Positions 18,275 through 42,224 of a stretch of 42,224 nt of DNA are shown here, in pieces. A program made the position numbers and the translations under genes. The DNA is from a virus. Taxonomy: Duplodnaviria; Caudoviricetes. The notes below the pieces were generated by a model. That model was not told the DNA's origin. It searched no databases and saw nothing but the letters and a program-made list of their open reading frames with translations. The DNA lies in the IMG/VR virus record IMGVR_UViG_3300037424_002673, positions 1 through 42,224 of that record; one strand, written 5' to 3'. Position 1 is the stretch's first letter; the number at the start of each line of letters is the position of its first letter.

Positions 18275-18280
18275 GCTGTG

Positions 18281-19516
18281 TTACGGCTGCCAAGGCTTGC
18301 TCGGAGACTTGGGCAAGGCAATGCTGGGGGTAGGGGCATCCACCGCTTTGCGCGGCACGATGACGATCGGAGCAGCGGTGGCCGCGCCGCGACTGGCATA
18401 CTTGGTCATGGCTTCGCGTCCCGTTTGCTTGCCGTAGGATTCGGCGAGGTAGGTGCCGACCTTTTCGAAGCCCTCGTCGGTGATAAGGTGTTCGTACTCG
18501 GCCTCTACCACGTCGAGCCACTTGAAGAAGATGTCGGCCTTGCGGGGCGATTCTTCCCATTTGTCTGCGAAGTTCTCCAGTGGGTTGACGGGGTTCGGCA
18601 CCCACCACACGCCGTCACGGTTTTCGATGTGCTGGCGCATGCCGGGCACGATCTTGAGGATGGCGTCGTACAGGTTGGCCTCATTGTCGTAGGCCTTGGC
18701 GGCCAGCGTGGTGATGATGATCGAGATGGGCCGATCTTCGTCGCCGTTGTATCGCACATCGCGGTGGCGCTTGAGAATCTGGATTACGCGTTGCAACGGT
18801 GTGCGCACCTCGTAGTCCTCGATGTCTTCGACCGAGGCGACGACGTTTCCCGAGGCTCGTTTCTCCATGAGCAATACAGATTTTGCCTCGTCGAGTCGAA
18901 CACGCATGCGGTCCTTGAACCAGGCCGCATATCCCTTGGGATTGCTGCGGGTAGGGTCATGCGAGCCGTTGCCCTCGGCAGGCCAGCCGGTGAGGTAGTC
19001 AGGGGTTTTCTTGTCGGTGATGCGAATCGCGTGGGCGGCAATGTCGTCATCGACGCCGACGGCCTGGAGCCACTCGGGCCGATCGGGTAAAGCGGGAAGA
19101 ACATCGAGGTGGAACTGGGAATCGTCGGCGTACTGGATCGTCCAGCAGCGGCGACCGCCGTCACTGGGATCAATCTTGTCCTTGTAGCGGCTGCTCGGGT
19201 GCTTCAGCCGACGGCCGACCATTTCCTTCAATTCGCACTGGGTCACCTGGCTATCGGTTAGATCGAGCAGGCAAACAGCGTCAACGTCATACTCGTCGTC
19301 GCCAAGTGGGCGGACGGCGGTCCCGAGCGCGAACGAGCCCTGTGCATAGATTTCGGGCGAGAACGCGGCGAGCTCAGACTCGTCATCGTTGAGCCAATCG
19401 CCCACCGCCTTGTAATGGTCTTTCGCCTCAGCGTATTTGGACGGCGGCACGTCGAGCGTGTCGGCCAGATCACGGAGAAGATGGTTCAGTTGCTTACGGT
19501 TTTCGATTTCGCTCAC
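18281..19516 (-). CDS. cGAS/DncV-like nucleotidyltransferase (CD-NTase)
   Basis: QGSFALGT, EYDVD, FHLDVLPA, SNPKGYAAWF, PLQRVIQILKRHRD, PISIIITTL, NPVNPLENFADKW. GTG start at 19516 with AAGGAG RBS. Confidence 0.93.
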   Translation of the reverse strand: MSEIENRKQLNHLLRDLADTLDVPPSKYAEAKDHYKAVGDWLNDDESELAAFSPEIYAQGSFALGTAVRPLGDDEYDVDAVCLLDLTDSQVTQCELKEMVGRRLKHPSSRYKDKIDPSDGGRRCWTIQYADDSQFHLDVLPALPDRPEWLQAVGVDDDIAAHAIRITDKKTPDYLTGWPAEGNGSHDPTRSNPKGYAAWFKDRMRVRLDEAKSVLLMEKRASGNVVASVEDIEDYEVRTPLQRVIQILKRHRDVRYNGDEDRPISIIITTLAAKAYDNEANLYDAILKIVPGMRQHIENRDGVWWVPNPVNPLENFADKWEESPRKADIFFKWLDVVEAEYEHLITDEGFEKVGTYLAESYGKQTGREAMTKYASRGAATAAPIVIVPRKAVDAPTPSIALPKSPSKPWQP

Positions 19517-19605
19517 GGCTGGTCTCCTTGAGGCAGGTTGATGTCGAGGGCGTGAACGAAGCCCCCCGAAGGTGGAACGGCGATGGTCATGGGATGTCGC
19601 ATCAT
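19513..19605 (-). CDS. 30-aa mini-ORF MMRHPMTIAVPPSGGFVHALDINLPQGDQP
   Basis: Fills the patatin/CD-NTase gap exactly, with an ATGA overlap at its start and a GTGA overlap at its end. Confidence 0.4.
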   Translation of the reverse strand: MMRHPMTIAVPPSGGFVHALDINLPQGDQP

Positions 19606-20579
19606 GCGGCCCCCCCGTCGATATTGAGGAATTGCTTGAGTTTCGGCGAATGATGGGTGAAGCAATGGTCGGCTTTGGCGATCCAGTCATCGCCGTGCCG
19701 CACGGAGTCCATGGGCAGGTGAGAATCGGATTCGAACGTCAGGCGAAACACCCGTTCGGGATTGATCGGGCTTTCGCCCAGCAGCAGGCAAAGCATGTTG
19801 TGGGCGTTATCTGCCTGCAGGTTCAGAATCAGGTCCAGCAGTTTACTGCGCTGCCAGCGCGTGGCGAAGCCCCATCCCTGCCAACTGCGGATCAGCCAAT
19901 CCTTCCATCGACCCTCGGTCTTGGGATAGAAGACCTTGCTCTTGCCGGTGCCGATGGAAAGCACGCGGACGTCGGCCAGCGGCACTTTGAGTCGATATTG
20001 AGCATCGATGACGGCGACGAGCGACGGGTTGTTGGCCCAGAGACCACCATCGACCAGCTGATACTTGCCATCGACGAAATGCGGGTCGAAGTACGTCGGG
20101 GCCGAGCAAGAGGCCAAGACTGCATCGGACAGCTTGACGCCGGGGTCGCGGACGAAGCCATCGGCGTACTTCGACTTGAAGACGTGGACGCAGCCGTTGC
20201 CGATGTCGACAGCGGGCAGGATGAGCGGAACCGGAACGTCACCGAGGGTGGTGGAGCCGAGCGTATCCTCCAGCAAGCCACGCAATGTTTTGTTCGAGTA
20301 CCGGCTGGTGAAAATCTTCAGCAGGTCCAGGCGCGATCGAAGTCGCATCGTGAAAATGCTTCGGCCGTGTTGCACATAAAAGTCGGCCAGTTGCCCCGCG
20401 CTCATCCCATTAGCCAGGCCGCCCGCGATGATCGAACCGGTGCTGGTGCCGGCGAACATGCCGAAGCGATCGTGCCAGTTGGTACCCCAAGCGTCCTCCA
20501 TGCGCCGGAGCACGTGGGCCGAGAACAACCCACGGTATCCGCCGCCATCAATGCTCAGGATGTAGAACGGATCGCTCAC
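19602..20579 (-). CDS. capV: CBASS patatin-like phospholipase effector (CapV-like)
   Basis: LSIDGGGYRG, GTSTG nucleophile elbow, SAPTYF, DGGLWANNP. Adjacent to the CD-NTase. Confidence 0.9.
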   Translation of the reverse strand: MSDPFYILSIDGGGYRGLFSAHVLRRMEDAWGTNWHDRFGMFAGTSTGSIIAGGLANGMSAGQLADFYVQHGRSIFTMRLRSRLDLLKIFTSRYSNKTLRGLLEDTLGSTTLGDVPVPLILPAVDIGNGCVHVFKSKYADGFVRDPGVKLSDAVLASCSAPTYFDPHFVDGKYQLVDGGLWANNPSLVAVIDAQYRLKVPLADVRVLSIGTGKSKVFYPKTEGRWKDWLIRSWQGWGFATRWQRSKLLDLILNLQADNAHNMLCLLLGESPINPERVFRLTFESDSHLPMDSVRHGDDWIAKADHCFTHHSPKLKQFLNIDGGAA

Positions 20580-22138
20580 AGGCCCAACTCCTTGAGGTAT
20601 CCGTTCAGTTCCTTGTCCACGGCGGCGAGTTCGCTTTCCAGCGTGGCGATTTCCTTCTGCACGGCGGGGATATCAACCTCTGGCTCCGGCTCGAAGGTGT
20701 CCACGTAGCGCGGGATGTTCAGGTTGAAATCGTTCTCCTTGATTTCATCCAGCGTGGCGGTATAGGCGTACTTGTCCACGTGCTTGAAGGTCTCGTAGGT
20801 GGTGACGATCTTGGCGATATCCTGCGGGCGGAGGCGGTTCTGGTTCTTGCCGTCCTCGTACTCCCGGCTGGCGTCGATGAAGAGGATGTGCTTGTCGCGG
20901 TGCGAGCGGGCCTTGTCCCACGGCTTGCGGCCCTTGTTGAAGACGACGATGGCGGCTGGGATGCCGGTGCCGAAGAAGAGGTTGGCGGGCAGGCCGATGA
21001 CGGCTTCCAGAATGTTGTCCTCGATGAGCTTCTGGCGAATCTTGCCCTCGGCTCCGCCCCGGAACAGGACGCCGTGGGGCACGATGACGCCGACGCGTCC
21101 CTCGTCCTCGAGCGCCGTTTCGATCATGTGGCTAATGAAGGCGTAGTCGCCCTTGCTTTTGGGCGGGATGCCGCGCCAGAAGCGGTTGTACGGGTCGTTC
21201 TCAGCGTAGTCGTGGCCCCACTTGTCGAGGCTGAAGGGCGGATTGGCGACGACGACGTTGAACCTGAGCAGGCGGTCGCCCTCGACCAGGTGCGGGCTGG
21301 TGATGGTGTTGCACCACTCGACGCGGGCGTTGTCCATCTCGTGGAGGAACATGTTCATGCGGCACAGCGCCCAAGTGGAGCCGTTGGATTCCTGGCCGAA
21401 GAGGGCGAAGTTGGCTGAGCCGATTTCCTTGGCGACGCGGATGAGCAGTGAACCGGAGCCGCAGGTGGGGTCGCAGATGGTGTTGCCGGGCTTGGCGTTG
21501 AGCAGCTTGGCCAGGAGCGTGGCGACCTCGCCGGGCGTGTAGAACTCGCCGCCTTTCTTGCCGGCGTCGGCGGCGAAACGGCTGATGAGGTATTCGTAAG
21601 CGTTGCCGATGACGTCCTGCTTGCCGATGCGGCTGGGACGCAGGTTGAGCTGCGGCTTGGCGAAGTCTTCCAGCAGATGATTCAGGCGGCGGTTGCGATC
21701 CTTGGCCTGGCCGAGGTTCGGCTCGGAGTTGAAGTCGATGTTGCGGAAGACGTTCTCGAGTTTGGCTTTGTTGGCGTCCTCGATGGCCTCGAGGGCGATG
21801 TTGATCAACTCACCAATGTTGGAGCGGGTACGGCGTTCGTAGAGGCTGTCAAAGCTGGCGAGGAAGGCTTCTTCAACCTTGCCGTTCTTGTCACGCAGCT
21901 CGACGGTGGGCATGACGAAGCGCTCGCGATCAAGGGCACGCTTGACCCGCTGCTCATCGCCCTTGTACTGCTTGAGGTATTGGTCGCACTTGTCGTTCCA
22001 GAGGTCCGACATGTACTTGATGAACAACATCACGAGGATGTAATCCTTGTACTGCGTCGGATCGAGCGTGCCGCGGAACGTATCGCAGGCCTGCCACAAG
22101 ATGTCGTTGATTTCTTTCTGGGTGACGGTCTGGTTCAT
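20576..22138 (-). CDS. hsdM: Type I R-M N6-adenine methyltransferase M subunit
   Basis: LWQACDTFRG, GEFYTP, DPTCGSG, NPPF, PHGVLFRG, FNLNIPRYV. Confidence 0.97.
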   Translation of the reverse strand: MNQTVTQKEINDILWQACDTFRGTLDPTQYKDYILVMLFIKYMSDLWNDKCDQYLKQYKGDEQRVKRALDRERFVMPTVELRDKNGKVEEAFLASFDSLYERRTRSNIGELINIALEAIEDANKAKLENVFRNIDFNSEPNLGQAKDRNRRLNHLLEDFAKPQLNLRPSRIGKQDVIGNAYEYLISRFAADAGKKGGEFYTPGEVATLLAKLLNAKPGNTICDPTCGSGSLLIRVAKEIGSANFALFGQESNGSTWALCRMNMFLHEMDNARVEWCNTITSPHLVEGDRLLRFNVVVANPPFSLDKWGHDYAENDPYNRFWRGIPPKSKGDYAFISHMIETALEDEGRVGVIVPHGVLFRGGAEGKIRQKLIEDNILEAVIGLPANLFFGTGIPAAIVVFNKGRKPWDKARSHRDKHILFIDASREYEDGKNQNRLRPQDIAKIVTTYETFKHVDKYAYTATLDEIKENDFNLNIPRYVDTFEPEPEVDIPAVQKEIATLESELAAVDKELNGYLKELGL

Positions 22139-22743
22139 GGGATCATTCCTTCCTGCCGAACGGCCTGTCGGCAGACAGCATGAATTAGCTGTTCGCGCTT
22201 CTGATCAAGACGAACTTGAAGTGAGCGATGTCGTCGCAAGAGGTTCATGGCTTCGGCGATTCGACGCTGCACATCTAGCGGCGGCACCACGACAGGGAGG
22301 TGCTCCATCAATGGGCGGGCGATGTAGCCGATTCCAGTGCCGCTTGAGGCGGATTCAAGGGCGGCCTGCGTATCCGGCTGATTCAGCCACCACGCAAGAT
22401 AGCCTGGCACCATGCCTTCACGCGGCCTGATGATGTAGAACACGCTGGACGCGAGTACGCCTTCAAGTTCCGCATCAACTAGGTGTGCGTGGTGGTCTTG
22501 GCCCCGCGCGGTCAGAAGGATGTCGCCGCGTGACACCCGGTAGAGGTCGGCGTTACGCTCAGGTATGAACCGAACAGCGGCATCGAGCCGCAGGCCGCTC
22601 TTGGGCGAGATGTCCCTTGCCTGCAGAAGCAAGTGAGTGCCTGCTGGCAAGGACCGCACCCGCGCGCGGTTAAGATAGCCTGGCTGCACGCGAGCCACGC
22701 GTTGAAGCTCAACAAACTGATGTGGTATATCAGTAGCCAACAT
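22135..22743 (-). CDS. Half-size HsdS-like protein (single TRD)
   Basis: GDILLTARG, PGYLAWWLN, LPVVVPPLDVQRRIAE. ATGA overlap with hsdM. Confidence 0.75.
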   Translation of the reverse strand: MLATDIPHQFVELQRVARVQPGYLNRARVRSLPAGTHLLLQARDISPKSGLRLDAAVRFIPERNADLYRVSRGDILLTARGQDHHAHLVDAELEGVLASSVFYIIRPREGMVPGYLAWWLNQPDTQAALESASSGTGIGYIARPLMEHLPVVVPPLDVQRRIAEAMNLLRRHRSLQVRLDQKREQLIHAVCRQAVRQEGMIP

Positions 22744-25877: not shown

Positions 25878-28800
25878 ATGGTGAACGTCATGGACAGTTA
25901 CACTCTGCCTGTTGATGCATTTGTGCGATCGTTCGCTGTGGATCGAGGTTCGCCGTACGCGGTATTCCTCGGGGCAGGGGCATCGATTTCGTCCGGTGTG
26001 CCATCAGCCGAGAAATGCATCTGGGAGTGGAAGCGGTCCATCTTTCTTTCACACCATCCGGGGCTAGAGAAACAGTTCGGTGAGCTATCGCTCGCAGGTG
26101 TGAAGGATCGCATCCAGGTGTGGTTGGACGGTACAGGAGCCCACCCGCCGCGTGACGATCCGGCGGAGTACGGGCACTACATCGAGACGTGCTATCCAAT
26201 CGAAGAACACCGGCGACAGTACTTCCGCAAGAAGCTCCAGAATGTGCAACCGTACGTGGGCTACCGCCTATTGTGCTTCTTGGCGCAACTGGGAACCGTT
26301 CGGTCGATCTGGACCACGAACTTTGATGGCTTGACGGCTAAGGCCGGTGTGAATGCGACTGTTGAGCCGATTGAAGTGGGGATTGATTCGGCAGACGCGA
26401 GGTTACCTCGGCAACGACGTGATGGTGAACTGCTTTGCGTCTCATTGCACGGGGACTACCGCTACGATCCGCTGAAGAATACGGAAGAGGAATTGCAGGA
26501 TCAGGATCGCGCATTGCGGGTGGCAATGATCGAGGAGATGAAGGACACCTCCTGCATCTGCATTGGTTATAGCGGGCGTGATGGGTCTGTGATGAAAGCA
26601 TTAAGCGATGCTTTCACGCAGACGGGAACCGGTGCTCTGTACTGGTGCATCTACGGTGACGCGGAACCGCCGGGAGTCGTGGTTGATTTGATACGTCGTG
26701 CGAGGCGCGCAGGCCGCGAGGCACATATTGTTCCGACGGCAGGATTCGATGACGTAATGGACCGGTTGGCGCGCCACGCGGCCACTGATACGGAACGAGG
26801 CGCTGTCGAGAGCATTTTGTCGGAGTACGCTGACGAGCAGCGACTACAGCGTGGCGTGTTCAGCTTACCGCAACATGCAAGCAGCTCGGTGATCAAGAGC
26901 AATGCGTTCATCATTCAGTGTCCTGGAGAGGTGTTTGCATTCAATCTGACTGAGTGGCCATCGGAGCGTGTCTGGCAGTGGCTGCGGACACGGGCCGGAG
27001 AGTACATGCTAGCGGCCGTTCCTCTCAGCGGGCAGGTCCTCGCGCTTGGCACGATTGATGACATACGGGCCGCGTTTGGGGACGCCGTCGATGGACAAAT
27101 TCAGAGGACCCCGGTGCAGGATCAGGACTACCGCTACGAAGATGGAGCGATTGTGTCGCTGATGGTGAGCGCGCTTGCAAAGGCGTTAGCGAAGGAAGTG
27201 GGCGTGCGGACCGATGGGAGGCGGATGCTGTGGGACACGCGGCCGAGCGACAAGGCGGGGGGCAGTGATCCGGACGTACAGGTGTTCGATGCGGTCGAAC
27301 TATCGTTGCGGCGGATAGGAGGCAGGACATGTCTGGTATTGACGCCCACCCTCTATCTGGAGAATGCGGATGGCAGCACTCCTGAACGAGAGGTGGTTCA
27401 GCGCATACGTTTCCACCGGCTGAGCGGACAGTACAACAGCCAATTCAACGATGCTGTAAACCGATGGCGTGAGAGACTACTGGGAAAGGGCGACTCATAC
27501 AGGGAACTGGAGTTTCCACCGGGCACAGGGGCAGGTTTCCGGTACCGCATCAGACGCGCGCCGATTTTTGCGGAAATTGGTGAACCAGGGCGCAGGACAA
27601 GCATCAAGTTCAAGAACGTACAGCCAAGTCTGCTGCAACAATACGGCGTACGTATCGAGGAGCCACCCTTGTTATTCGCTAGCAAGGATGGCAACAGGAT
27701 CTGTTCCGATTCGCATCCGATTCGCGGCATCACAAAAAATCGACCGTATGACTATTCGCTAACACTGCGGGGGCTGGATGAAGCCGTTCGGCTTGGTGTG
27801 ATCTGCCCGGCGCAAGAAGAGAAGGGTCTTCACGAGTACCTGCACCAGGCGCTTCGCAGTCACCGGACAGCACCACGGCCGGTCTATCTGCAGGATTATC
27901 CTGGGTTTCATCAAGCCTACGGTCTGCCGTTGGAGGTCCCTGAACCAGGATCGTCAGGGTGGTATTGTTGCCCTGAGCCAGACGAAAGCAGTCCGGAAGA
28001 AGGCGCTGTGAGTCTGGGGCGTGCCATCACAACGGCTGCTAAACAGCTACAGGCAGCGGCAGCACCTGATGCGGTCATCATCTACATTCCGGACCGTTGG
28101 AGTTGGTATCGCGGATACCGAACGAACGATGAGCGATTCGATTTACACGATTACGTAAAGGCGTTCTGCGTGCAACGCGGGCTTGCGAGCCAGTTTTTGA
28201 ACGAAGATACGCTGCGGGATGGTGATCAGTGTCGTGTGTGGTGGTGGCTTTCACTTGCTCTCTACGTGAAGAGCATGAGGACGCCATGGGTGCTTGGGGG
28301 GATGGACGATGACACGGCCTTTGTGGGGATCGGGTACAGCGTTGATCTGTCGAGGGATCGCGGGCGGCATGTCGTCCTTGGATGCAGTCACATTTACAGC
28401 GCCAGCGGTGAGGGCCTGCAATACCGCCTAAGCAAGATTGAGCAGCCGACGATCGTCAGGGGCAATCCATTCATGTCCCAGGAAGACGCCCGGCGTGTCG
28501 GCGAAACCATCCGGCACCTGTTTTACGAGTCGCGAACTGCATTGCCGCGTCGTGTAGTGCTGCACAAGCGAACCCCATTCCGGCGCGAAGAACGGGAGGG
28601 CTTGGGGCAGGGGCTGGCTGGTGTGAAAGATATCGACATGGTGGAAGTGAGTATCGACGGGGCCATGCGTTATGTGGCATCGCACGTGAACGATGGGGTG
28701 GTCCAGGTCGATCGGTATCCGGTTCGCAGAGGAACAACCGTGAAGCTGGATGACTATGCGGCTTTGAGCTGGGTGCATGGGGTCACGGAATCGGTCACAC

Positions 28801-29048
28801 CGGGGCGACAGCACTATCAAGGCGGGCGGCGCATTCCTACGCCGCTCGTGTTGCGACGGTATGCAGGTCACACGCCGCTTGAACAGCTCGCCCGCGAGGT
28901 TATGGGTTTGTCGAAGATGGATTGGAACACGTTCGATATGTACACGAAGCTCCCAGCAACGCTCCAGTCTTCGGGGGAGATAGCAAAGATTGGATCACTG
29001 TTGGAGCGGTTTGGCTCGGGTTCATACGACTACCGGCTGTTCATGTAA
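25878..29048 (+). CDS. Fused SIR2-APAZ-short prokaryotic Argonaute (SPARSA-type)
   Basis: SIR2 motifs FLGAGASISSG, WTTNFD, LHGDY, IGYSGRD. MID/PIWI motifs DLHDYVKA..SQFL, LALYVKS..PW, FVGIGY (no catalytic Asp), VVLHK, RGT, LSKMDWN. Confidence 0.92.
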   Translation: MVNVMDSYTLPVDAFVRSFAVDRGSPYAVFLGAGASISSGVPSAEKCIWEWKRSIFLSHHPGLEKQFGELSLAGVKDRIQVWLDGTGAHPPRDDPAEYGHYIETCYPIEEHRRQYFRKKLQNVQPYVGYRLLCFLAQLGTVRSIWTTNFDGLTAKAGVNATVEPIEVGIDSADARLPRQRRDGELLCVSLHGDYRYDPLKNTEEELQDQDRALRVAMIEEMKDTSCICIGYSGRDGSVMKALSDAFTQTGTGALYWCIYGDAEPPGVVVDLIRRARRAGREAHIVPTAGFDDVMDRLARHAATDTERGAVESILSEYADEQRLQRGVFSLPQHASSSVIKSNAFIIQCPGEVFAFNLTEWPSERVWQWLRTRAGEYMLAAVPLSGQVLALGTIDDIRAAFGDAVDGQIQRTPVQDQDYRYEDGAIVSLMVSALAKALAKEVGVRTDGRRMLWDTRPSDKAGGSDPDVQVFDAVELSLRRIGGRTCLVLTPTLYLENADGSTPEREVVQRIRFHRLSGQYNSQFNDAVNRWRERLLGKGDSYRELEFPPGTGAGFRYRIRRAPIFAEIGEPGRRTSIKFKNVQPSLLQQYGVRIEEPPLLFASKDGNRICSDSHPIRGITKNRPYDYSLTLRGLDEAVRLGVICPAQEEKGLHEYLHQALRSHRTAPRPVYLQDYPGFHQAYGLPLEVPEPGSSGWYCCPEPDESSPEEGAVSLGRAITTAAKQLQAAAAPDAVIIYIPDRWSWYRGYRTNDERFDLHDYVKAFCVQRGLASQFLNEDTLRDGDQCRVWWWLSLALYVKSMRTPWVLGGMDDDTAFVGIGYSVDLSRDRGRHVVLGCSHIYSASGEGLQYRLSKIEQPTIVRGNPFMSQEDARRVGETIRHLFYESRTALPRRVVLHKRTPFRREEREGLGQGLAGVKDIDMVEVSIDGAMRYVASHVNDGVVQVDRYPVRRGTTVKLDDYAALSWVHGVTESVTPGRQHYQGGRRIPTPLVLRRYAGHTPLEQLAREVMGLSKMDWNTFDMYTKLPATLQSSGEIAKIGSLLERFGSGSYDYRLFM

Positions 29049-33247: not shown

Positions 33248-34087
33248 ATGATCGATTCAGAAGCCATGGACATCCCGATCATTCGTTTGCGTCCGCTGCG
33301 GGAACGAAGCATCAGTAAGCGCGACTACGACCGAATCGCAGCCTCGGTCAAAGCCCTTGGGCTACTGGAGCCCTTGGTCGTGTACCCAGAGGGCGAAGAC
33401 TACATCATCCTTGATGGCGTGCAGCGGTACCGCATTCTTTTGGAGATGGGGGTAGAGCTGGTTCCCTGCGTCCTGGGCAAACAGCGGGAGGCGTTCACCT
33501 GCAACCGCATGGTGAACCGCCTATCGCCTCTCCAGGAACACCGGATGATTAAGACGTCGCTGGAGAAGAACCTCGATGAGAAGACGATCGCCAACGCGCT
33601 GGGCACCGCGGGCATCGGGCACCGCCTCAAGAAGTCGCTGATCAGCCAATTGCATCCAGACGTCGCAGCGGCATTCGACGAGGGGAAGGTGAGTCGCGGC
33701 TGCGCGCGAGAGATGACCTTCATTAAACCGGCGCGTCAGCGTGAAATCCTCACGGCAATGGAGGGGTACAAGGATTTCAGCACCGCATTTGCCAGGGCCC
33801 TGGTGCTTAAGACGCCGCCAGCGCAGCGAGAGACGCGCCGCCGAAAAAGCAATCCCTGGGATCAGAAAGCCCAGCGAAAGAACGATCTGATCAAGAAGCT
33901 CGCCGAGGCCGAGGAGAAGCACGATTTCTACTCGCGCCTCTACAAGCAATACACCGTGGACCTCCTACGAATTGCGATCTATGCCCGATCGGTGGTCACC
34001 AATGTTCGCCTTCGGGCCTATCTGGAAGAGCACTATCCGGACATCGTCGTGCGTTTTGAGACGATCATCGCCGATGCAAAAGGATAG
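33248..34087 (+). CDS. ParB N-terminal domain / RepB-like protein
   Basis: SVKALGLLEPLVV, ILDGVQR, NRMVNRLSPLQEH, HTH IANALG. Confidence 0.8.
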   Translation: MIDSEAMDIPIIRLRPLRERSISKRDYDRIAASVKALGLLEPLVVYPEGEDYIILDGVQRYRILLEMGVELVPCVLGKQREAFTCNRMVNRLSPLQEHRMIKTSLEKNLDEKTIANALGTAGIGHRLKKSLISQLHPDVAAAFDEGKVSRGCAREMTFIKPARQREILTAMEGYKDFSTAFARALVLKTPPAQRETRRRKSNPWDQKAQRKNDLIKKLAEAEEKHDFYSRLYKQYTVDLLRIAIYARSVVTNVRLRAYLEEHYPDIVVRFETIIADAKG

Positions 34088-34091
34088 ACAC

Positions 34092-35051
34092 ATGCACCGA
34101 CGATGGACCCGCAAGACCATCATTCAGGAGATCATCCAGCGGGAAGCTACGGGCCTCTCGCTGTCAGCGAGTCCCCGAGCCGGCGTCGACGCCTCCCTGT
34201 ACCAAGCCGCCAAGCGTGTTTACGGATCGTGGCAGGAGGCGTTGCTCGCTGCAGGGATCGCTCCGGAACGGGCGATGCCCAGTGAGAGATGGCCGCCACA
34301 GAAGATACTGAACACCATTCGCCAACTCGCCAAGCGCAAGCGGCCCGTGAATATCGCCAAGATCAGCAAGCGGTACGTCGGCCTAGTGCCAGCGGCCCGA
34401 CGCGCATTTGGCTCATGGCCCAAAGCTCTGGTCGCCGCCAGCGTCGACCCCGCGAAGTTCTGTTGCCCTGCCCCTTGGTCGCGTGAGAGGGTCATTGAAG
34501 GCATCTTGACCTGTGCGCTCCGAAACGAGCTCCTGGGATCGCGTACCACCGAACCACGCGCACTGGTCGACGCCGCACAGAAGATCTTCGGAACGTGGGC
34601 GGCGGCGAAGAAGGCAGCCGGAGTTGGCTCTTGTGTAGCGGCAGCGTGCCCGGCATCTGAGTTGTCTGGGGAGCGCAGAGTTCGGAAAAGTGCCCTGCCG
34701 AATGGCGATTACCGGCCGGGTCTCGCTCGGTACTCCGCCCCCCTGCATCCTCGGGGCGAACGATGGACCAATGAACTGGTAGGCGCGTCCATTCGTGCGA
34801 GGCTCGATCGCGGGCTACGGATCAATGCCACAGCAGTGAACGACGAAGACAAGGCGCTTTATCGAGCAGCAACGCGCCGCTTCGGTAACTGGACCAACGC
34901 ATTGCTCGCCGCGGGACTGAACCCAAAGGATTTCTGGCGTCATGGCAAGCCGCCATCCGCGAGAGCACGGGAGACCAAGGCGTTGGGTATCGCTGACACC
35001 GACGATGAGACGCACCGGGCGAACGTAATCCCCGGCGAGGAAACAACATGA
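34092..35051 (+). CDS. Protein with four ~55-aa helical repeats (W..E.I...L..AA.R.FGSW..AL.AAG), putative DNA-binding
   Basis: Four clear internal repeats ending YGSWQEALLAAG, FGSWPKALVAAS, FGTWAAAKKAAG and FGNWTNALLAAG. Confidence 0.75.
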   Translation: MHRRWTRKTIIQEIIQREATGLSLSASPRAGVDASLYQAAKRVYGSWQEALLAAGIAPERAMPSERWPPQKILNTIRQLAKRKRPVNIAKISKRYVGLVPAARRAFGSWPKALVAASVDPAKFCCPAPWSRERVIEGILTCALRNELLGSRTTEPRALVDAAQKIFGTWAAAKKAAGVGSCVAAACPASELSGERRVRKSALPNGDYRPGLARYSAPLHPRGERWTNELVGASIRARLDRGLRINATAVNDEDKALYRAATRRFGNWTNALLAAGLNPKDFWRHGKPPSARARETKALGIADTDDETHRANVIPGEETT

Positions 35052-35102: not shown

Positions 35103-35966
35103 ATGAATGCCAGTCGCAGAAACGCACAGAGACCACGCGAGGTCATCTCTCTAACCAACTACAGTCAGTTGGAGCTGTACCTCGCCAAATTCGCCGCAGG
35201 CAGTCTGGGTCTGGTTTTGCTCATCGGCCGTCATGGGACCGGCAAGAGTGAAAGCGTTCGCAGGAGTCTTGCGGGTGCCACTGGTTCGCCGCATTGCCCT
35301 GAAGACGGTTCCGCATCGGCGCTCTTCATTGAAGGCCATATGCAACCGTTCGGCTTGTACCGACACTTGTGGGAGTACCGCGATCATCCCGTCGTCCTCG
35401 ACGATCTGGATCGCCTCTACGCCGATCCCGACTGCGTGCGCCTGCTGAAGCCGCTATGCAACACCGTCCCCCAAAAGCGTCTGTACTGGCTGACCAACGC
35501 CACGATGAATGACGGCGGCGTGCCGGCCTCTTTCGCGACGAGCAGCCGCGTTATTTTGATCGCGAACGAGTGGAAGAGCCTCAACCCGAACGTGCGTGCA
35601 CTGGAAGATCGGGCCATCATCCTGCATTTCGACCCGCCCAATCACGAGGTGCATCGACGAGTCGGTGAATGGTTCGACGATGATGAGGTCTACGAATTCA
35701 TCGCCAGCATTCTGAACGCAATTCCAGCGGTTTCCATGCGGCACTACTGCAAAGGTTCGCAACTGCGGCACGCCGGGCTTCAGGATTGGCGCACCAGCCT
35801 TCTCCAGATGGTGATCTCTGACCCGCGTGCGGGATGTCTGCTCGCATTACAGCAGGACCAGTCCCTCACTGCCGAGAAGGAGCGTGTGGATCGGTTTGTT
35901 GCGGCGACAGGTTGTTCACGTGCCACGTACTTCAGGATGAAGGCGAAGCTAACCGATCCTAAGTAG
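35103..35966 (+). CDS. P-loop (AAA-like) ATPase with C-terminal HTH
   Basis: GRHGTGKS Walker A, VVLDDLD Walker B, ILIAN, ALEDR arginine finger, TGCSRATYFR. Confidence 0.8.
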   Translation: MNASRRNAQRPREVISLTNYSQLELYLAKFAAGSLGLVLLIGRHGTGKSESVRRSLAGATGSPHCPEDGSASALFIEGHMQPFGLYRHLWEYRDHPVVLDDLDRLYADPDCVRLLKPLCNTVPQKRLYWLTNATMNDGGVPASFATSSRVILIANEWKSLNPNVRALEDRAIILHFDPPNHEVHRRVGEWFDDDEVYEFIASILNAIPAVSMRHYCKGSQLRHAGLQDWRTSLLQMVISDPRAGCLLALQQDQSLTAEKERVDRFVAATGCSRATYFRMKAKLTDPK

Positions 35967-36013
35967 GCGAGACACGTCTCACCCGACGCTGATGTAGTAA
36001 CGCAGCAGCCACT

Positions 36014-37795
36014 TCATAGCATTGAGCCGTAGACACATTTGCATCTAGGGTCATACGATGGTCGGCCACACAACTTGCACGGCTCGTAATAAAGGCGTTC
36101 CTCTACCTGAATCCGAGGCGGGTTTAGCCGGACGTCGAAGTCTTGCGGTTGATGCTCATACCGCAATTCTCCGGGTACGAGCATGGGATCAGCACTGCTT
36201 GCCACATTCGGCCGAAGCGTGACCGCACCTTTCGGCGCGGGCTCGTCGTCTTCCTGCGGCTCATCCTCCGACTTGTCCTCGTTCGCCGGCTCATGCCCAT
36301 CCATGCCAACTGAAACACAGAATTCGAGGTCATGAATCTCACCGTGATCACGATGGCCGTTCATGAGCGAAACGGCCGTGGTGTGCAGGATCAGGTTCTC
36401 ATCGACCTCGACTCTCATCTGGAGCCGCTCGCGGAAAGGCTTCGCCGAAGAATCGATCTTGACGGTCATTGTCGCGAGCACCTTACGGATATCGTTGGGG
36501 CGCACCAGTCGTCCCGGCCGCTTTGGTGATACGATCTCGAACTTCGCGAAACCGTCTCGCGGGTCGACGCAATACAGGTCAAAATCATCGCCGCAGACAT
36601 CTCCCTGCATTGGCATCTTGGTATCCGCTTTCAACAGCGGCAAATAGGATTGTCGCGCAAGGGCGAGCTCAACAGTCTTCGCAAGCCGCAGCCCCGCCTT
36701 ATCGTGAGCGATCCAAGCAGCTCCAACAGAAATAGCCCCAGCGCCAGATTCAGGTAGGCGTACTCGCTGGGGGCCAAACCGCTCATGCAAACGTGACTGA
36801 ATGGCCGGCATATTCACCATCCCGCCCGTTGCAAGGCACAGTCCAATTTGAGGATGAGACAGCCGCGCGGCCTCCAGGAGGCGGTCAACACGATCGGTAC
36901 CGGCGTCAACGATGGGCTTTGTGGCTTCCTCGAGGAAGTGACGAGTTGCTCTGAAGTCTAGCGCGTCGTTCTCAACATCACGGAAGAAGTGGTCCACATA
37001 CACTTGGACGCTGTCCCGCTCAGACAGGTCGATCTTTGCACGTTCGCATTTTTGCAGCAGCCGTGCATTTGCGTCCGGATGGATCGATGCGCTGTCTGAA
37101 ACGGATTGTGCGTCGCGGCCAAGCCGAATCACCTCGTTCCTCAACGCATCGTCGAACCGGTCCCCACCCACCTCGTCGCTTCCATCATTCGCGATCTGGA
37201 GGATCATGCCGTTTTCGATGCGGCAAAGCGTTAGGTCGAGAGTGCCGCCCCCCCAGTCGAATACGAGGACGTGCCGGCGATCGTATCGGCGAAGGTTCTC
37301 CTTGACCCCGCCAGCTGAGCGGAAGTAGCCGTAGAGGGCGGCAAGTGGTTCGTGCACGTATTGGACGATGCGGATACCCGCCCGACTAAAGGCCTCGCGA
37401 AGCTTGGCTCGTCGTTGACCTTCGAAGGTGACGGGAATGGTTACTACAGCTGAATCGAGCGAGTCCAACCGACCTGATCGTCGTCCGAGCGTCTGGCGCT
37501 TGACTCCCTTGATTACATCCGCCACTACGTCAATCGTGCTGCGTTCGACTCCATCGACGTAGACCGAGTCATCCTGCAAGAGAATCTTGGGCGACCGTAC
37601 GATGTTTCCGTACACTCCAAGACCAGCGTCTTCGAGTCGGTCTTTTGCCTCTTTGCCAACAATGATGTCGCCACCCTCGTAGCAGACGACGGAGGGGATC
37701 GGCAGCCCCCCGTCGAAATGACTGATCGGACGATTACCGTCGATGTGCGAAACCAGACTGTTCGTGGTCCCGAAATCAAATCCTACCGTCGTCAT
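36014..37795 (-). CDS. Divergent Hsp70-family protein with C-terminal Cys cluster
   Basis: GFDFGTTNS, HEPLAA, FDWGGGTLD, GGDRFD, ERAKIDLS, TGG, GAA. Ends CKLC...CKC. Confidence 0.9.
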   Translation of the reverse strand: MTTVGFDFGTTNSLVSHIDGNRPISHFDGGLPIPSVVCYEGGDIIVGKEAKDRLEDAGLGVYGNIVRSPKILLQDDSVYVDGVERSTIDVVADVIKGVKRQTLGRRSGRLDSLDSAVVTIPVTFEGQRRAKLREAFSRAGIRIVQYVHEPLAALYGYFRSAGGVKENLRRYDRRHVLVFDWGGGTLDLTLCRIENGMILQIANDGSDEVGGDRFDDALRNEVIRLGRDAQSVSDSASIHPDANARLLQKCERAKIDLSERDSVQVYVDHFFRDVENDALDFRATRHFLEEATKPIVDAGTDRVDRLLEAARLSHPQIGLCLATGGMVNMPAIQSRLHERFGPQRVRLPESGAGAISVGAAWIAHDKAGLRLAKTVELALARQSYLPLLKADTKMPMQGDVCGDDFDLYCVDPRDGFAKFEIVSPKRPGRLVRPNDIRKVLATMTVKIDSSAKPFRERLQMRVEVDENLILHTTAVSLMNGHRDHGEIHDLEFCVSVGMDGHEPANEDKSEDEPQEDDEPAPKGAVTLRPNVASSADPMLVPGELRYEHQPQDFDVRLNPPRIQVEERLYYEPCKLCGRPSYDPRCKCVYGSML

Positions 37796-38961
37796 GCATT
37801 CTTCCCCTCAGACAGTGATCTCATTTCAGCCTTAAGTCCGCTTATAGCTCGCTCCGCATGGTCGTCCATGACGTGCGTTTTGGGTGGGTCGCGCCTGAGT
37901 GCTAAAAGGCCTTCTTGCAGTAAGTCAACCTCAGCTTCCATCCGACGCGTGACTCGGGACCGCAACTGATCCATATCGTTCTCCGCATGCGTCATCGCGG
38001 ATTTGTGTTCCTGTTCGGCCTGCGTGAACTCCGCTTTGAGCCCCTCTATTGCCGACGAGAGGTGCTTGACTTGCTGCTCCAGTGCCTGCACCCTCACCTC
38101 CGAACTGGCAAGGGCGGATGCGGCCTGCCCTTCTCGTCGGGCTGCATCCTCAGCAAGTCTTGCTTGCTCGTCTGCCTCTACTGCGAATGCTGAGGCCGTC
38201 AAGCCGGCCGCAGCATGATCAGTCAGCTTGAGCAGTAGCTTCAACCTATCCACGGGCTTTCGTACCGAGCCAATCGCGCTCGACCATCGTCGCTTGTGGA
38301 GTTCGCGCACAATCGCCGGGAGGTCGGCTGAACCTAACTGGTTAAGCCACAGGACGACATTGAACAACAAGTTGTGCTGCAACTTGCCCTGCTCAGCCTT
38401 CTTCAAAGGCTTCTCGGATTCCACGGGCGGGAGAGATGCGATGTATCTGGTCTCGGCGGCGACCTCGAGGGCTTGCCAAGGAGATGTCCGTAAGTCCCGC
38501 GCCTTATGCAACAGGTCAAGTATCCTCGCTGACGCGGGATAGTGGTGGAGAATCGCGAGATACGTACGCTCGATCTGTCGCCACAAGGGAAGCACTTGGC
38601 GATGTGGAAGACCAGTTAGGAATAACTGTGCGGGTACGGCCATCACGCGATCTGACTTCGCCAAAGCCGGCACGACAGCGTCGAAGAACGCCGTCTCTGG
38701 CATCTCCTGCTCTGCCAGATGCAGAGCGTCCTTCTTGGTCAGCTTTACCACTTGTCCCTTGCGTGAATAAAGATGCCTTATGAGGTCTTCGAAGGTGTTG
38801 TACCTCGGGCTCTTGGCCTTGGAACCCGTTCGCGAAGGCGACGATGTGTGGCCGTCGGAGCTTTGCTTCTGCGAATTGGCACCTGAAGGTGTCGCTCGGT
38901 CACTACCGTCCTTTTGAGCCGGATGGCTGGCCAGTTCTGAACTATCCCATTGGTCTGTCAT
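37792..38961 (-). CDS. Hypothetical helical protein with C-terminal coiled coil
   Basis: Heptad-rich segment VQALEQQVKHLSSAIEGLKAEFTQAEQEH. ATGA overlap with the Hsp70 gene. Confidence 0.75.
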   Translation of the reverse strand: MTDQWDSSELASHPAQKDGSDRATPSGANSQKQSSDGHTSSPSRTGSKAKSPRYNTFEDLIRHLYSRKGQVVKLTKKDALHLAEQEMPETAFFDAVVPALAKSDRVMAVPAQLFLTGLPHRQVLPLWRQIERTYLAILHHYPASARILDLLHKARDLRTSPWQALEVAAETRYIASLPPVESEKPLKKAEQGKLQHNLLFNVVLWLNQLGSADLPAIVRELHKRRWSSAIGSVRKPVDRLKLLLKLTDHAAAGLTASAFAVEADEQARLAEDAARREGQAASALASSEVRVQALEQQVKHLSSAIEGLKAEFTQAEQEHKSAMTHAENDMDQLRSRVTRRMEAEVDLLQEGLLALRRDPPKTHVMDDHAERAISGLKAEMRSLSEGKNA

Positions 38962-38985
38962 ATCGCCTGCGGTACCTCTCTACAA

Positions 38986-40089
38986 CTACCCGCGTTCAAT
39001 CACCTCGAGTAATCCGCGCGCCGAGAGTTGCGGACTGTCCAAGTGATAGAGCTCGCGGGCGTGATTCCTAGCGTAGCCAACGTTGCCGCATTGGTAATGT
39101 ATTGCGCCAAGAATGATATGGCACTTTGTCTTGTCGAACTCAGCAAGCGGCTTGTGCGAAAATTCTTCAATCTCATCGACGTGTTGAGTAAGAGCCTCCA
39201 TATCCTGGCACATCCACGCAATAATGGACTCTGTGTCGGCATCCGTCAGTGCGCGATCGACGGCTGTTCTTTGCGCTGTAGGCCGAACCACAGGTGCAAT
39301 CCGTCCATCTCCCCAAGCCCGCAACCGCGCACTAGCAGCCGCTACGCGACTCGAGGAAGCGCGACACTCATCGCTCTGCAGAAGATTGAAGTTGAAATCA
39401 ACAAGACCAGATATATGGCGTGCTAGCGGGCGTTGGATGCCGTTGAGCGCGTCCACGGCGCGGTTCAGTTTGTCTCGGTACTGGTCGTAAGGTACATCAA
39501 TCGCACGGGATCGTTCCTTGGCAAGCACGCCGTAGAGGTACTCGCAGATGCCCCCACAGTAAGCCTCGGCGGTCCGAAACCGTTTGCTTGAGGTGATGAA
39601 ATGCTCAATGGCACGGCGATCGAGACGACCCTCCGACGCCGTGACGAGGAAGCAACGCTCCACACCTTCGAGGTCATCGGGTGTGGCGACCATGAAATGA
39701 ATGGTCTTCGGTGTTTTTGCTATATCACCCAACAGCACGATGCGAGCCGTGCCTTCACGATAACGCGATAGTGCCTCGCCCAGCGAACTCGCGGAAATTG
39801 CTCGGTCGTTGAGGATGGCGTTTTGTGTCGAGAGCACAGTGATGTCGGAGGGCGAGAGCGGGGTCTTGATCACCAGGGGCTGGGTGTTCACTTCAACACC
39901 ACGAATCAGGAGGCAGGGACGTTCAATGGGATGCGCTTCGAATCGGTGTGTTCGAAGCTTCTCCAATGAATCAAAGACGGCGTCACACTGGTCACAGCAG
40001 TAGCGAGGTGCTGGGGTATCGGTGACTTGGATGTCGCCCAAGCCGACTTCCTCGTGGAATTCAGCATAGCCCGTGTGCCAAAAACCCAT
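38986..40089 (-). CDS. Hypothetical protein with an N-terminal classical C2H2 zinc finger and a helical/TPR-like C-terminus
   Basis: YCCDQCDAVFDSLEKLRTHRFEAH. Start MGFWHTGY at 40089. Confidence 0.78.
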   Translation of the reverse strand: MGFWHTGYAEFHEEVGLGDIQVTDTPAPRYCCDQCDAVFDSLEKLRTHRFEAHPIERPCLLIRGVEVNTQPLVIKTPLSPSDITVLSTQNAILNDRAISASSLGEALSRYREGTARIVLLGDIAKTPKTIHFMVATPDDLEGVERCFLVTASEGRLDRRAIEHFITSSKRFRTAEAYCGGICEYLYGVLAKERSRAIDVPYDQYRDKLNRAVDALNGIQRPLARHISGLVDFNFNLLQSDECRASSSRVAAASARLRAWGDGRIAPVVRPTAQRTAVDRALTDADTESIIAWMCQDMEALTQHVDEIEEFSHKPLAEFDKTKCHIILGAIHYQCGNVGYARNHARELYHLDSPQLSARGLLEVIERG

Positions 40090-40126
40090 GTGCAAATCCC
40101 CGAACTAGCGCCCGTCTGAGCAATAA

Positions 40127-40156
40127 AGGATAACCGAATATCCTACCACGAGGCAA
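40127..40156 (-). promoter_or_regulatory. Possible promoter of the Hsp70 operon with overlapping palindrome
   Basis: TTGCCT-N18-TATCCT on the minus strand. AGGATA-N6-TATCCT inverted repeat at 40127-40144. Confidence 0.35.
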
Positions 40157-40187
40157 AATGCCCGGCCGACGTGAAGTCGGCACGGGC
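40155..40187 (-). terminator. Intrinsic terminator after the beta-propeller gene
   Basis: gcccggccgac-gtgaa-gtcggcacgggc hairpin followed by ATTTT on the minus strand. Confidence 0.55.
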
Positions 40188-40285
40188 GATTTCAGGGGCC
40201 GAGTTGGTGTGGTGACGATTACGTGCTGATCCAAGCCGAATGCAACCGTCAGCGGCCACAGCCGTCGCCACGACCCGGCAATCCA

Positions 40286-41461
40286 TCAGGGTACGGGGCG
40301 CATCGCCATCGCGTTGACGTACCCCGCCGTGCGCCACTCGCTGTACTCTTGGCCGTCAGGGCGAATGGCGATGACGTTGCGGTCGTGGCCGCCTGTTCCA
40401 AGCCCCTGCCCGCCGAGCACCAGGCCGCCATCCCCATCGCCGCAGAAGACGGTCGGATAGTTGTTCATGACGGTCACCGTGTCCAGAAGCGAGCCCGAAC
40501 CGAGGTTGAGTTTCTCGACGAGGACCGTGCCTGTCGCACTGTCATAACCGCCGATCCAGAACAAGTCGCCGGAGGCGGCCTGGCGGACGGGGAGGCTCGC
40601 CATTCGTCCCCAGAGAATGGAACCCCCCGAGCCGCTGAGCCGCCAGAGGTTGGCATTGGGGCCGCCCCACTCGCTGTTGGCATCACCATAGACGACAAAG
40701 TTGTCATCGCCATCGGCGCTGATGCGGATTCCATCGTAGGACATGAAGTTGCCTGCGCCGTTCTCCACGGGATTGCCATCGTCATCCACCACGACGCCTA
40801 GCTGTGTTTGCCAACTGACGGAGCCGCCGGTCGAAAGCTTGATGACGCCATATTCGGGATAGGGGTAACCGTAAGAGGTCGAGGAACCCAGGGCCAGGCC
40901 GACGCCGGTGCCGCTCACCGCGACGCCCTGAATCAAGGTGGGATAAACGACTTCGTGCATCCAATATTCGCTGCCGCTGGCCCCATCGACCTTGTAAATC
41001 CGATTGTTGGATTGAAGGTACAGGTCATCGTTGCCGTCCACCCCGCGCAGATGGATCGGATAATTGACAGCGAGTGAAGCGACGTTTTTTGCCCACTGCA
41101 GCACCCCCGAGGCATTGAACTTCCAGAGATTCGCCACGGTCGAGCCGTTGCCGCCGACCCAGCTGGTGGTGCCATATCCGCTGAAATAGACATTGCCCTG
41201 CGAGTCGACCGCCGCACCCAACAGGGCCTGGCCCGAGTCGAAATGCCAGTCGTGACCATACGGATCGCGCAGGGCCATGCCGCTGGCGTAGCCGGTTTCG
41301 CCGACGTTGGGATCGCCCCACCAGGCATTACTGCGGTTGAAGGCGACGGCGAGATTCAAGGGGTAGCGCCTTCGACTGTAGAACTTGTACGACGAAGCAC
41401 TGGAACGGGTCACCAGTGCGTTACCCGCGCGCGATCGACAAACGCTATTGAAGTAGGTCAT
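40286..41461 (-). CDS. Beta-propeller repeat protein (PQQ/SBBP-like), possible virion or receptor-binding protein
   Basis: Repeated blades AVDSQGNVYFSG, KFNASGVLQW, KVDGASGSEYW, KLSTGGSVSW, RLSGSGGSILW. Start at 41461 (ATGA overlap). Confidence 0.7.
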   Translation of the reverse strand: MTYFNSVCRSRAGNALVTRSSASSYKFYSRRRYPLNLAVAFNRSNAWWGDPNVGETGYASGMALRDPYGHDWHFDSGQALLGAAVDSQGNVYFSGYGTTSWVGGNGSTVANLWKFNASGVLQWAKNVASLAVNYPIHLRGVDGNDDLYLQSNNRIYKVDGASGSEYWMHEVVYPTLIQGVAVSGTGVGLALGSSTSYGYPYPEYGVIKLSTGGSVSWQTQLGVVVDDDGNPVENGAGNFMSYDGIRISADGDDNFVVYGDANSEWGGPNANLWRLSGSGGSILWGRMASLPVRQAASGDLFWIGGYDSATGTVLVEKLNLGSGSLLDTVTVMNNYPTVFCGDGDGGLVLGGQGLGTGGHDRNVIAIRPDGQEYSEWRTAGYVNAMAMRPVP

Positions 41462-42224
41462 TGCGGCACCATCGCCCAGGCCCGGCCATCCATATTGGGG
41501 TCGATCAACGTCAGCTCCCGCTCCGGGCTGCCCCCAGGCAATCCTTCGCTGGTGAATACGCCCGTGCCCGACACCTCCCACGCGTAAAACTCGGTCCGCC
41601 CCACGCCGCCCGCCGAGATGGTGGTGCGGTATGGCGGGACGATCTCCTGGTGCTCGACCAGGCCGGCGCTGTTGGTCACGGTGCGGGCGCTGACGCCGGA
41701 CGCGGTGACCGTCAGTCCAAGCTGATCCACCAGACCGTTGAACGGCGTCTGCCGCAGTTCGAAGGGCTTGGCGACGTAGTACGTGCTGCCCAGACTTGTG
41801 CCATCCCACGCCCGGCAGACGAGGTAATCGTTGCGCACCGTCGTCACCACCAGGCGCAGCAGCGCGCTGCCGCTGCCGAAACGCACGATCGCATCGACGG
41901 TGCCGGTGCCACCGGCCGTCCAAAGGATCTGGGCCTGCCCGCTGCCGGATCGCAACTGGCCGGTCTGGCCATTGTCGACGTCGGCGCGCGTCTCGGTGCC
42001 GCTGGTCATGATGACGCGGGCGATGGTGACGCCGCTGATGGCCGCGCGGCCGATGGCCCCGGCGGCAATGGGAGCCTGAGCGATGACGAAGCGGCCGGCG
42101 TGGGCCACGATGGTGGGCGTCACACCCTTCAGCGCCACCTGCTGCGCGAAGGCATCGGCGTGATCGTCCGGCGACACGATCGGACCATCGATGCCCAGCA
42201 CGCCAAAGCGCGGTACAGGGACGC
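41458..42224 (-). CDS. Hypothetical protein (5' end outside the window), probable phage structural/tail-region protein
   Basis: Open to the window edge, G/A/T/V-rich beta composition, coupled to the propeller gene. The structural role is an inference. Confidence 0.55.
   Translation of the reverse strand, partial: VPVPRFGVLGIDGPIVSPDDHADAFAQQVALKGVTPTIVAHAGRFVIAQAPIAAGAIGRAAISGVTIARVIMTSGTETRADVDNGQTGQLRSGSGQAQILWTAGGTGTVDAIVRFGSGSALLRLVVTTVRNDYLVCRAWDGTSLGSTYYVAKPFELRQTPFNGLVDQLGLTVTASGVSARTVTNSAGLVEHQEIVPPYRTTISAGGVGRTEFYAWEVSGTGVFTSEGLPGGSPERELTLIDPNMDGRAWAMVPQ

Follow-up and report, generated by a model that had tools for sequence, protein, structure and literature searches.

What function does a specialised Hsp70 serve when it is encoded on viral DNA together with a zinc-finger protein and a coiled-coil protein? 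The question is raised by IMG/VR virus record IMGVR_UViG_3300037424_002673 (Caudoviricetes), which was analysed in its entirety (42,224 bases; completeness estimate ~72%) and is referred to here as the window. Three minus-strand genes of the window form the trio considered below: gene A (38986-40089), gene B (37792-38961) and gene C (36014-37795), the last of which encodes the Hsp70. A reading made from the DNA letters before any database search (the sequence-only reading) had taken them for an operon and a candidate undescribed defence system. From the comparative, structural and neighbourhood data given below, the three genes are a conserved accessory unit, patchy across ten phyla, that is likely an undescribed candidate defence system, and we consider it quite probable that the unit has a role against phage in some form.

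A conserved three-gene unit

The operon is present as proposed by the sequence-only reading: the three open reading frames (ORFs) lie on the minus strand at the positions given above, with a gap of 24 bp between A and B and an ATGA overlap of B and C, and across the other loci the genes mostly overlap or are a few bases apart. A scan of 185,579 genomes with an alignment of C returned at least 608 matching stretches (~1000 estimated), of which 531 were confirmed and the best 80 were examined. A lies no more than 2.2 kb upstream of C in 77 of these best 80 genome loci; of the other three, two are on contigs that end too soon and one (L069) is interrupted. When the search starts from A instead, B and C follow in 47 of the 48 metagenome loci having at least 1.8 kb downstream, and the gene order A-B-C holds from both directions. 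The sole exception among the 48 (L089:10001-11065) is an A homologue without B or C, followed by an unrelated gene of 290 amino acids.

The family of A comprises 386 clusters at 50% identity (E ≤ 1e-30), and the median identity of relatives to the window proteins is 29% for A, 20% for B and 47% for C. The trio occurs in ten phyla among the 63 genome loci placed in a tree (63 of the 74 aligned genome loci, the other 11, mostly near-duplicates, being left out), and the closest relatives of the window C, in a four-row group with a support of 99 in this quick tree, come from two Planctomycetota and one metagenome-assembled genome labelled Cyanobacteria. It is rare: two groups of 401 genomes each were sampled, and it was present in 2 genomes of one and 1 of the other, with the centre genome counted in each. 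Pseudomonas, Halomonas, Shewanella and Streptomyces are among its carriers. Of 22 carrier genomes, 21 encode a canonical dnaK in addition. A blastn search with a gammaproteobacterial trio gave no match in E. coli, and GenBank phages gave DnaK-level matches only. Mobile carriers comprise two conjugative plasmids and, besides the window record, 4 viral contigs (strong matches).

The lidless Hsp70, its predicted partner and its tail

Gene C encodes a specialised Hsp70 of 593 amino acids that matches PF00012 (E 1.8e-38) but reaches only 125.9 bits against the DnaK model TIGR02350, the cut-off of which is 822.55; the cut-offs of HscA and other NCBIfam models are likewise far above its scores. With the DnaK of the DnaK-DnaJ-GrpE system it shares the ATPase catalytic motifs, the hydrophobic inter-domain linker and the beta-sandwich substrate domain. 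In its ATPase domain (residues 1-365; 36701-37795, minus strand) D7, T10-T11, K70, E149, D180, T185 and D187 are intact, and the phosphate-1, K70, E149 and phosphate-2 motifs are invariant in 74 of 74 loci, in agreement with the claim that the ATPase motifs had been kept. The structure model (predicted local distance difference test score, pLDDT, 84.8) matches truncated DnaK structures such as 7kru with a Foldseek template modelling (TM) score of ~0.66 over ~530 columns, and the match runs through the beta-sandwich substrate-binding domain (369-495; 36311-36691, minus strand).

The differences from DnaK are as consistent as the likenesses. The position of DnaK R167, which we take to be a contact residue for DnaJ and allostery, is Q145 in the window C and is never arginine in the 74 loci (Q, H, T, A or S in 74/74), and a family-specific helix (164-171) that DnaK lacks is inserted. 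Beyond the beta-sandwich there is no helical lid; the model shows a disordered acidic linker (499-516; 36248-36301, minus strand) and then a short Cys4 tail (~520-593; 36017-36238, minus strand), which takes the place of the lid and probably binds zinc. The CxxC..CxC motif described for this tail by the sequence-only reading is C573-C576..C585-C587 and is conserved in relatives, with the strict pattern in 59 of 74 loci and variant, split or truncated tails in the remainder. No dnaJ or grpE lies beside the gene, neither family being matched among the 40 window proteins scanned.

Gene A encodes 367 amino acids from its ATG, with a conserved N-terminal peptide (of low model confidence), a C2H2 zinc finger (39931-39996, minus strand; C32, C35, H48 and H53), a beta domain (59-133) and a helical tetratricopeptide repeat (TPR)-like region (137-367). 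The finger matches the Pfam family zf-C2H2_6 just below its cut-off (E 4.6e-5), and its ligands are conserved (C32, C35 and H48 in 120 of 120 homologues, H53 in 99%); the structure model (pLDDT 88.4) has a TPR-like C-terminal half, and both parts of the original description of A therefore hold. Foldseek gave no match to the fold at E ≤ 0.001, and the best VIA match (Fis1, Z 8.6, rmsd 4.0, 113 aligned) is within the generic helical-repeat range; this comparison bore mainly on the helices, with little coverage of the beta domain. A is not a DnaJ in disguise, nor is B, as far as searches for a J-domain go: neither has a DnaJ Pfam match, and the HPD motif is present in a single A sequence (n=74) and a single B sequence (n=75).

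Structure prediction of the A-C complex puts A onto the ATPase domain of the Hsp70. The pair scored 0.74 and the best of three controls 0.00; the score mark used is reached by 116 of 157 solved complexes and by 2 of 215 mismatched pairs, counts that are only rough with the alignments used here. The runs share at least 85% of contacts with a partner pLDDT of at least 78, and they place residues 94-95, 113-116, 158-186 and 197-210 of A against 165-172 and 330-343 of C. Since the C patch at 165-172 is the insertion that DnaK lacks, memory of a DnaK complex would be an unlikely source of the prediction. Several contacts are well kept, namely P330 (75/75), G341 (73/75), E338 (70/75) and R169 (61/75) in C and Y186 (61/75) in A. 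The prediction supports binding of A to the Hsp70. The N-terminal peptide of A, which comes in three lineage types (50, 12 and 11 sequences, plus 1 other; n=74), is part of residues 1-30, which lie outside the confident interface, and this speaks neither for nor against the peptide as an Hsp70 substrate.

Gene B, the fastest-evolving of the three, encodes 389 amino acids with a variable, low-complexity N-terminus, a probably helical middle domain, the C-terminal coiled coil that had been claimed for it (~260-345) and a conserved C-terminal motif. A search of the Atlas returned no usable match for B. B was not adopted as a GrpE homologue because the score of a GrpE profile, built from 10 control-locus sequences of which two are fragments, equals that of the reversed-sequence control (hhalign probability 11.8% and 11.6%, respectively), and B has no GrpE Pfam match. 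Long variants of A or B were considered as effector fusions and rejected, their extensions being of low complexity and without a Pfam domain.

An Hsp70 with a dedicated partner could act on the virus directly. Hsc70 with auxilin uncoats clathrin, and by analogy the Hsp70, steered by A, would dismantle capsid or replication assemblies of the phage and leave the cell alive. The intact ATPase, the retained beta-sandwich, the predicted co-factor and the lack of a toxic domain are all consistent with such remodelling, but a lidless Hsp70 in which the DnaJ-contact arginine is replaced would suit a switch better than a processive unfoldase, and B is left without a role. We regard direct remodelling as quite unlikely.

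In relatives of C, the linker in front of the tail contains candidate recoding signals. Runs of nine to eleven adenines (A9-A11) are found in 11 of 114 distinct linkers where 0.01 would be expected, an expectation that derives from the rest of the same loci, in which 3.8 million strand-bases contain 3 such runs. These runs lie at about residue 500-510 in L018, L043, L065, L067, L068, L071, L074, L077, L080, L081 and L206, and each is mostly the sole such run of its locus. In-frame A_AAA_AAN occurs in 18 of 115 linkers; the gene body would predict 1.3, although it is not an ideal control for linkers that are rich in lysine. Frameshift-type cassettes are found in the linker of six Halomonadaceae loci (L045:4338-4406; L048, L050 and L063, each 11569-11637; L056:5494-5562; L057:10698-10766), in which A_AAA_AAG is followed one codon on by a stop in the -1 frame (TGA in five, TAA in one) and, 5-6 bases downstream, by a stem of 11-12 bp (z -2.0 to -4.3); no two-sided compensatory change in this stem is seen among the six close sequences. 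Other linkers are interrupted outright. In L066 and L070 there is an in-frame stop and the tail is a separate ORF that starts from ATG, L067 combines A9 with a zero-frame stop, whereas the corresponding run of its relative L071 is A10 and the frame stays open, and L081 has TAA where L206 has TCA. Linkers with these candidate sites, splits or stops fall on about five separate branches of the C tree. The motif C_CCA_AAA of eight actinomycete linkers, seven of which also have rare codons and a -1 stop close by, was not counted as a recoding site: none of the four that were folded has a significant stem (z 0.8 to -1.8).

Given the slippery sites and gene splits, long and short forms of the Hsp70, with and without the tail, are probably both made in these relatives; alternatively, the tail may be phase-variable or have been lost repeatedly. 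The closest parallel is dnaX, which, in the available part of PMC5009743, yields long and short products (tau and gamma) from one gene by the same two routes: a -1 shift at A_AAA_AAG with a stop one codon later in E. coli, as in the Halomonadaceae loci, and slippage on a run of nine in T. thermophilus, which resembles the A-run linkers. DnaX is an unrelated protein, and for the C relatives recoding is read from sequence alone and its signal is absent from the window gene. If real, these signals would add a dnaX-like dual-product case in an Hsp70.

Genomic neighbourhood and a proposed mechanism

The trio keeps the company of defence genes. Among the 57 genome loci with full flanks, meaning at least 5 kb on both sides, at least 39 have defence genes within about 6 kb. 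Recurrent gene clusters identify a core gene of bacteriophage exclusion (BREX) or restriction-modification (R-M), GmrSD or a C5-methylase gene within 6 kb in 25 of the 57, two of them by the methylase alone. A further 14 loci come from PADLOC, run on 156 proteins (seven cluster representatives and, from the remaining 32 loci, the larger ORFs); they have Wadjet, DISARM, Eleos, Azaca, Lamassu, Septu, SoFic, type II or III R-M or PADLOC candidate genes. The comparison was with 16 kb around the canonical dnaK in 20 of the carrier genomes, of which 1 locus is defence-linked: there were 0 matches to defence clusters and one convincing PADLOC match (PDC-S01, L171) among 115 of 122 representatives, the seven dropped being dnaK, dnaJ and frames taken to overlap them. 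Five partial matches (mad3, DolB, PDC-M37B) were read as RecN, Fur-like and ClpB cross-matches and left uncounted. The enrichment near defence genes expected of a defence system is therefore found.

Such an association could be only apparent if the trio were a mobile stress or proteostasis cassette on genomic islands, which are rich in defence genes. The Hsp70 fold would suit this explanation, about one third of the loci have no defence neighbours, and the dnaK control is not an island gene. However, no heat-shock or other chaperone gene is recurrent among the multi-locus neighbour clusters annotated, and BREX and R-M operons repeatedly contain the trio on their own strand, only a few bases from its neighbours. 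A stress cassette is very unlikely in our view. In 19 loci (10 from genomes, 8 from metagenomes and 1 viral) the trio stands between brxC/pglX and pglZ/brxL, and in another 2 it separates hsdM/hsdS from hsdR; this placement is more telling than the neighbour counts.

The same position would also be expected of a helper of BREX and R-M, the Hsp70 of which assembles their complexes or strips phage inhibitors off them; phages do make DNA-mimic inhibitors, Ocr being one example. In its favour are the 19 loci inside BREX and the 2 inside type I R-M operons, the presence of type I R-M on the window record and the lack of an effector domain in the trio. Yet the trio is also found beside Wadjet, DISARM, Eleos, Azaca, Lamassu and Septu genes, or beside none, and the main text of a BREX census, in the part available, mentions no HSP, DnaK, C2H2 or chaperone (PMC12839542). 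We consider a helper role unlikely. The available part of the census reports back-up effectors embedded in core BREX loci (PMC12839542), and the trio holds the same kind of position, with the difference that the effectors described there are nucleases while the trio has no recognisable nuclease.

No named system was matched, and the sequence-only reading had been unable to match one either: A, B and C match 0 families of PADLOC-DB 2.0 at E ≤ 0.01, no NCBIfam model was reached above its cut-off, PHROG gave no match for A or B, and the open literature searched contained neither a description of the trio nor a tested defence system with a stand-alone Hsp70 core. There is a small but real chance that the trio is already catalogued somewhere. 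Of the refuting conditions that the sequence-only reading had set itself, those on conservation, defence-gene enrichment and prior cataloguing were checked, and none refuted it. In the literature searched, Hsp70-like domains have so far been proposed only as parts of larger predicted systems (PMC11090510, PMC7159879). The type III-A CoCoNuT and NxD McrB systems likewise combine Hsp70-like nucleotide- and substrate-binding domains with coiled-coil and helical-repeat partners and form superoperons with BREX and type I R-M, but, in the text available, their Hsp70 is fused to McrB- or McrC-derived proteins, is reported to have degenerate Walker A-like motifs and is accompanied by GTPase, helicase and HEPN genes (PMC11090510). 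The Hsp70 of the trio is stand-alone, its catalytic motifs are invariant and it has no McrB, McrC or HEPN gene; McrB and McrC are also absent from the recurrent neighbour clusters annotated. For the GTPase-centred conflict systems (DO-GTPase, GAP1-N2) a dedicated HSP70 has been proposed as an NTP-dependent component, and dynamin GTPases recur near the trio too; the parts of those systems are TRAFAC GTPases with tubulin, or GrpE and DnaJ fusions, none of which is in the trio, and C2H2 is not mentioned in the portion of that source available (PMC7159879).

We propose that the most economical reading of the trio is a nucleoside triphosphatase (NTPase) switch, HSP70-like NTPases having been suggested, without detail, as switches of this kind in the accessible part of 10.64898/2026.10.19.760177. 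Specifically, A would dock on the ATPase domain of the lidless Hsp70, a contact that is predicted, and replace DnaJ as its regulator. A phage-derived protein caught in the substrate domain would then switch the nucleotide state of the Hsp70, and the switch would release B or a lineage-specific add-on effector so that the infected cell is arrested. The Cys4 tail may act as a regulatory module that only some Hsp70 molecules carry. Within this mechanism the effector step is the least secure, and the output is a guess because A and B contain no recognisable effector domain. That the trio is a stand-alone or back-up anti-phage system with an Hsp70 switch, A as regulator and output through B or an add-on is, in our judgement, evenly balanced between right and wrong. 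A more specific version is tentative and rather unlikely to be correct as a whole, namely an Hsp70-centred immune system with a non-DnaJ zinc-finger/TPR co-factor and no classical effector domain, in which the ratio of tailed to tail-less Hsp70 sets the activity and has been reached separately by ribosomal frameshifting, polymerase slippage or gene splitting.

Several observations weigh against an immune switch. No nuclease, NADase, pore or other effector domain was recognised in A or B. The strong conservation of C, with its median identity of 47%, is equally expected of a chaperone, and the predicted interface is not above average in conservation (0.41 vs 0.42 for A, 0.57 vs 0.59 for C). Up to 18 of the 57 full-flank loci are without a defence neighbour, the known systems of the window are 7-24 kb off, and the loci are not independent, 7 being from Streptomyces and 6 from Halomonadaceae. 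As a control, dnaK is a housekeeping locus and not a mobile accessory or island gene, and the control genomes were chosen after the neighbourhood labels had been seen, with 17 of the 20 corresponding trio loci being defence-linked. The window C itself has no slippery site or gene split in its linker, where the longest A run is 5.

If the trio does protect against phage, it would be a case of the main cellular chaperone fold put to use as an immune switch, and its C2H2/TPR protein, predicted to bind a surface that DnaK lacks, would be a novel type of Hsp70 regulator. The lack of a known effector domain in the trio means that protection would probably involve a new way of stopping infection. The unit is readily testable, being small (4.1 kb), with culturable carriers and clear point mutants.

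Flanking genes and the window record

A fourth gene accompanies the trio in actinobacteria, where it follows C in 14 of 21 genome loci and is divergently upstream in one more. It encodes ~450 amino acids with a conserved N-terminal domain, a coiled coil and a small C-terminal domain (L029:11760-13103, L001:16766-18106, L022:5899-7401 and 14 more, including one unassigned metagenome locus), and it has no Pfam, PADLOC, PHROG or PDB sequence match. By eye it looks like RelE, a likeness that is unconfirmed: the hhalign probability is 2.3%, with a score of 16.6 against a shuffle maximum of 15.2, using an 11-sequence RelE set with possible wrong-frame rows. Were the likeness real, the gene would point to a role in addiction or against plasmids, with the trio stabilising its element or keeping incoming DNA out, as would the two conjugative plasmids, the window virus record and the 4 other viral contigs on which the trio is carried. 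The fourth gene is absent from most lineages, however, and no small antitoxin-like gene is recurrent, and of the alternatives weighed here we hold an addiction module to be the least likely.

Dynamin-family neighbours are found in 21 of 162 loci. At L107:7054-9978 and 15 more loci, a dynamin GTPase of 970 amino acids fused to a C-terminal phospholipase D (PLD)-like domain lies directly upstream of A or within the BREX operon; it has no full-length PADLOC model and is possibly another undescribed defence gene. In five actinomycete loci (L033, L035, L038, L049 and L079) an Eleos-like dynamin pair (LeoBC, LeoA) is just upstream of A. A recurrent gene pair, the first member of which has a weak PDC-M72B match, lies downstream of the trio, ahead of pglZ, in four loci (e.g., L123:12535-13587 and L133:15480-16412).

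In the window the trio is convergent with a recombinase/ParB/AAA module. The sequence-only reading had placed it between this module and the end of the structural genes; the recombinase side of that statement is correct, and the upstream genes (40286-42222) are structural genes only putatively, as neither Pfam nor PHROG gave a match for them. It had also given the trio its own promoter, which is not supported by a sigma-70 scan of 35800-40500 (no minus-strand promoter; 1 plus-strand site vs 1.8 expected by chance). Between the upstream genes and A there is a terminator-like hairpin (40160-40187, minus strand) followed by AUUUUG (z -3.3), than which 0 of 200 shuffles fold equally well; it is absent from the output of a separate terminator scan. 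No meaningful repeats surround the trio in the window, and an empty-site test of its flanking genes against viral contigs found no relatives.

Elsewhere the record carries genes for recombination and for replication, a type I R-M operon, a cyclic oligonucleotide-based anti-phage signalling system (CBASS), a SIR2-prokaryotic Argonaute (pAgo) and two serine recombinases. The region had been described as holding R-M, CBASS and pAgo around the trio; all three are on the record, not adjacent to the trio but 7-24 kb away, beyond the recombinase/ParB module. The CBASS (15031-20579; patatin, cyclase and an E2 with a SEC-C motif) is placed between hsdM and hsdS of the type I R-M operon, in which hsdS and hsdR are likewise separated, by a metallo-beta-lactamase gene, and hsdM is preceded by a second, short hsdS-like gene (22135-22743). 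The SIR2-pAgo is a single-chain fusion of 1056 amino acids (25878-29048; PADLOC pAgo model, E 0). Between the ParB/RepB genes and the AAA ATPase, a further protein (33972-35051) carries several homing-endonuclease-associated repeats (PF18780).

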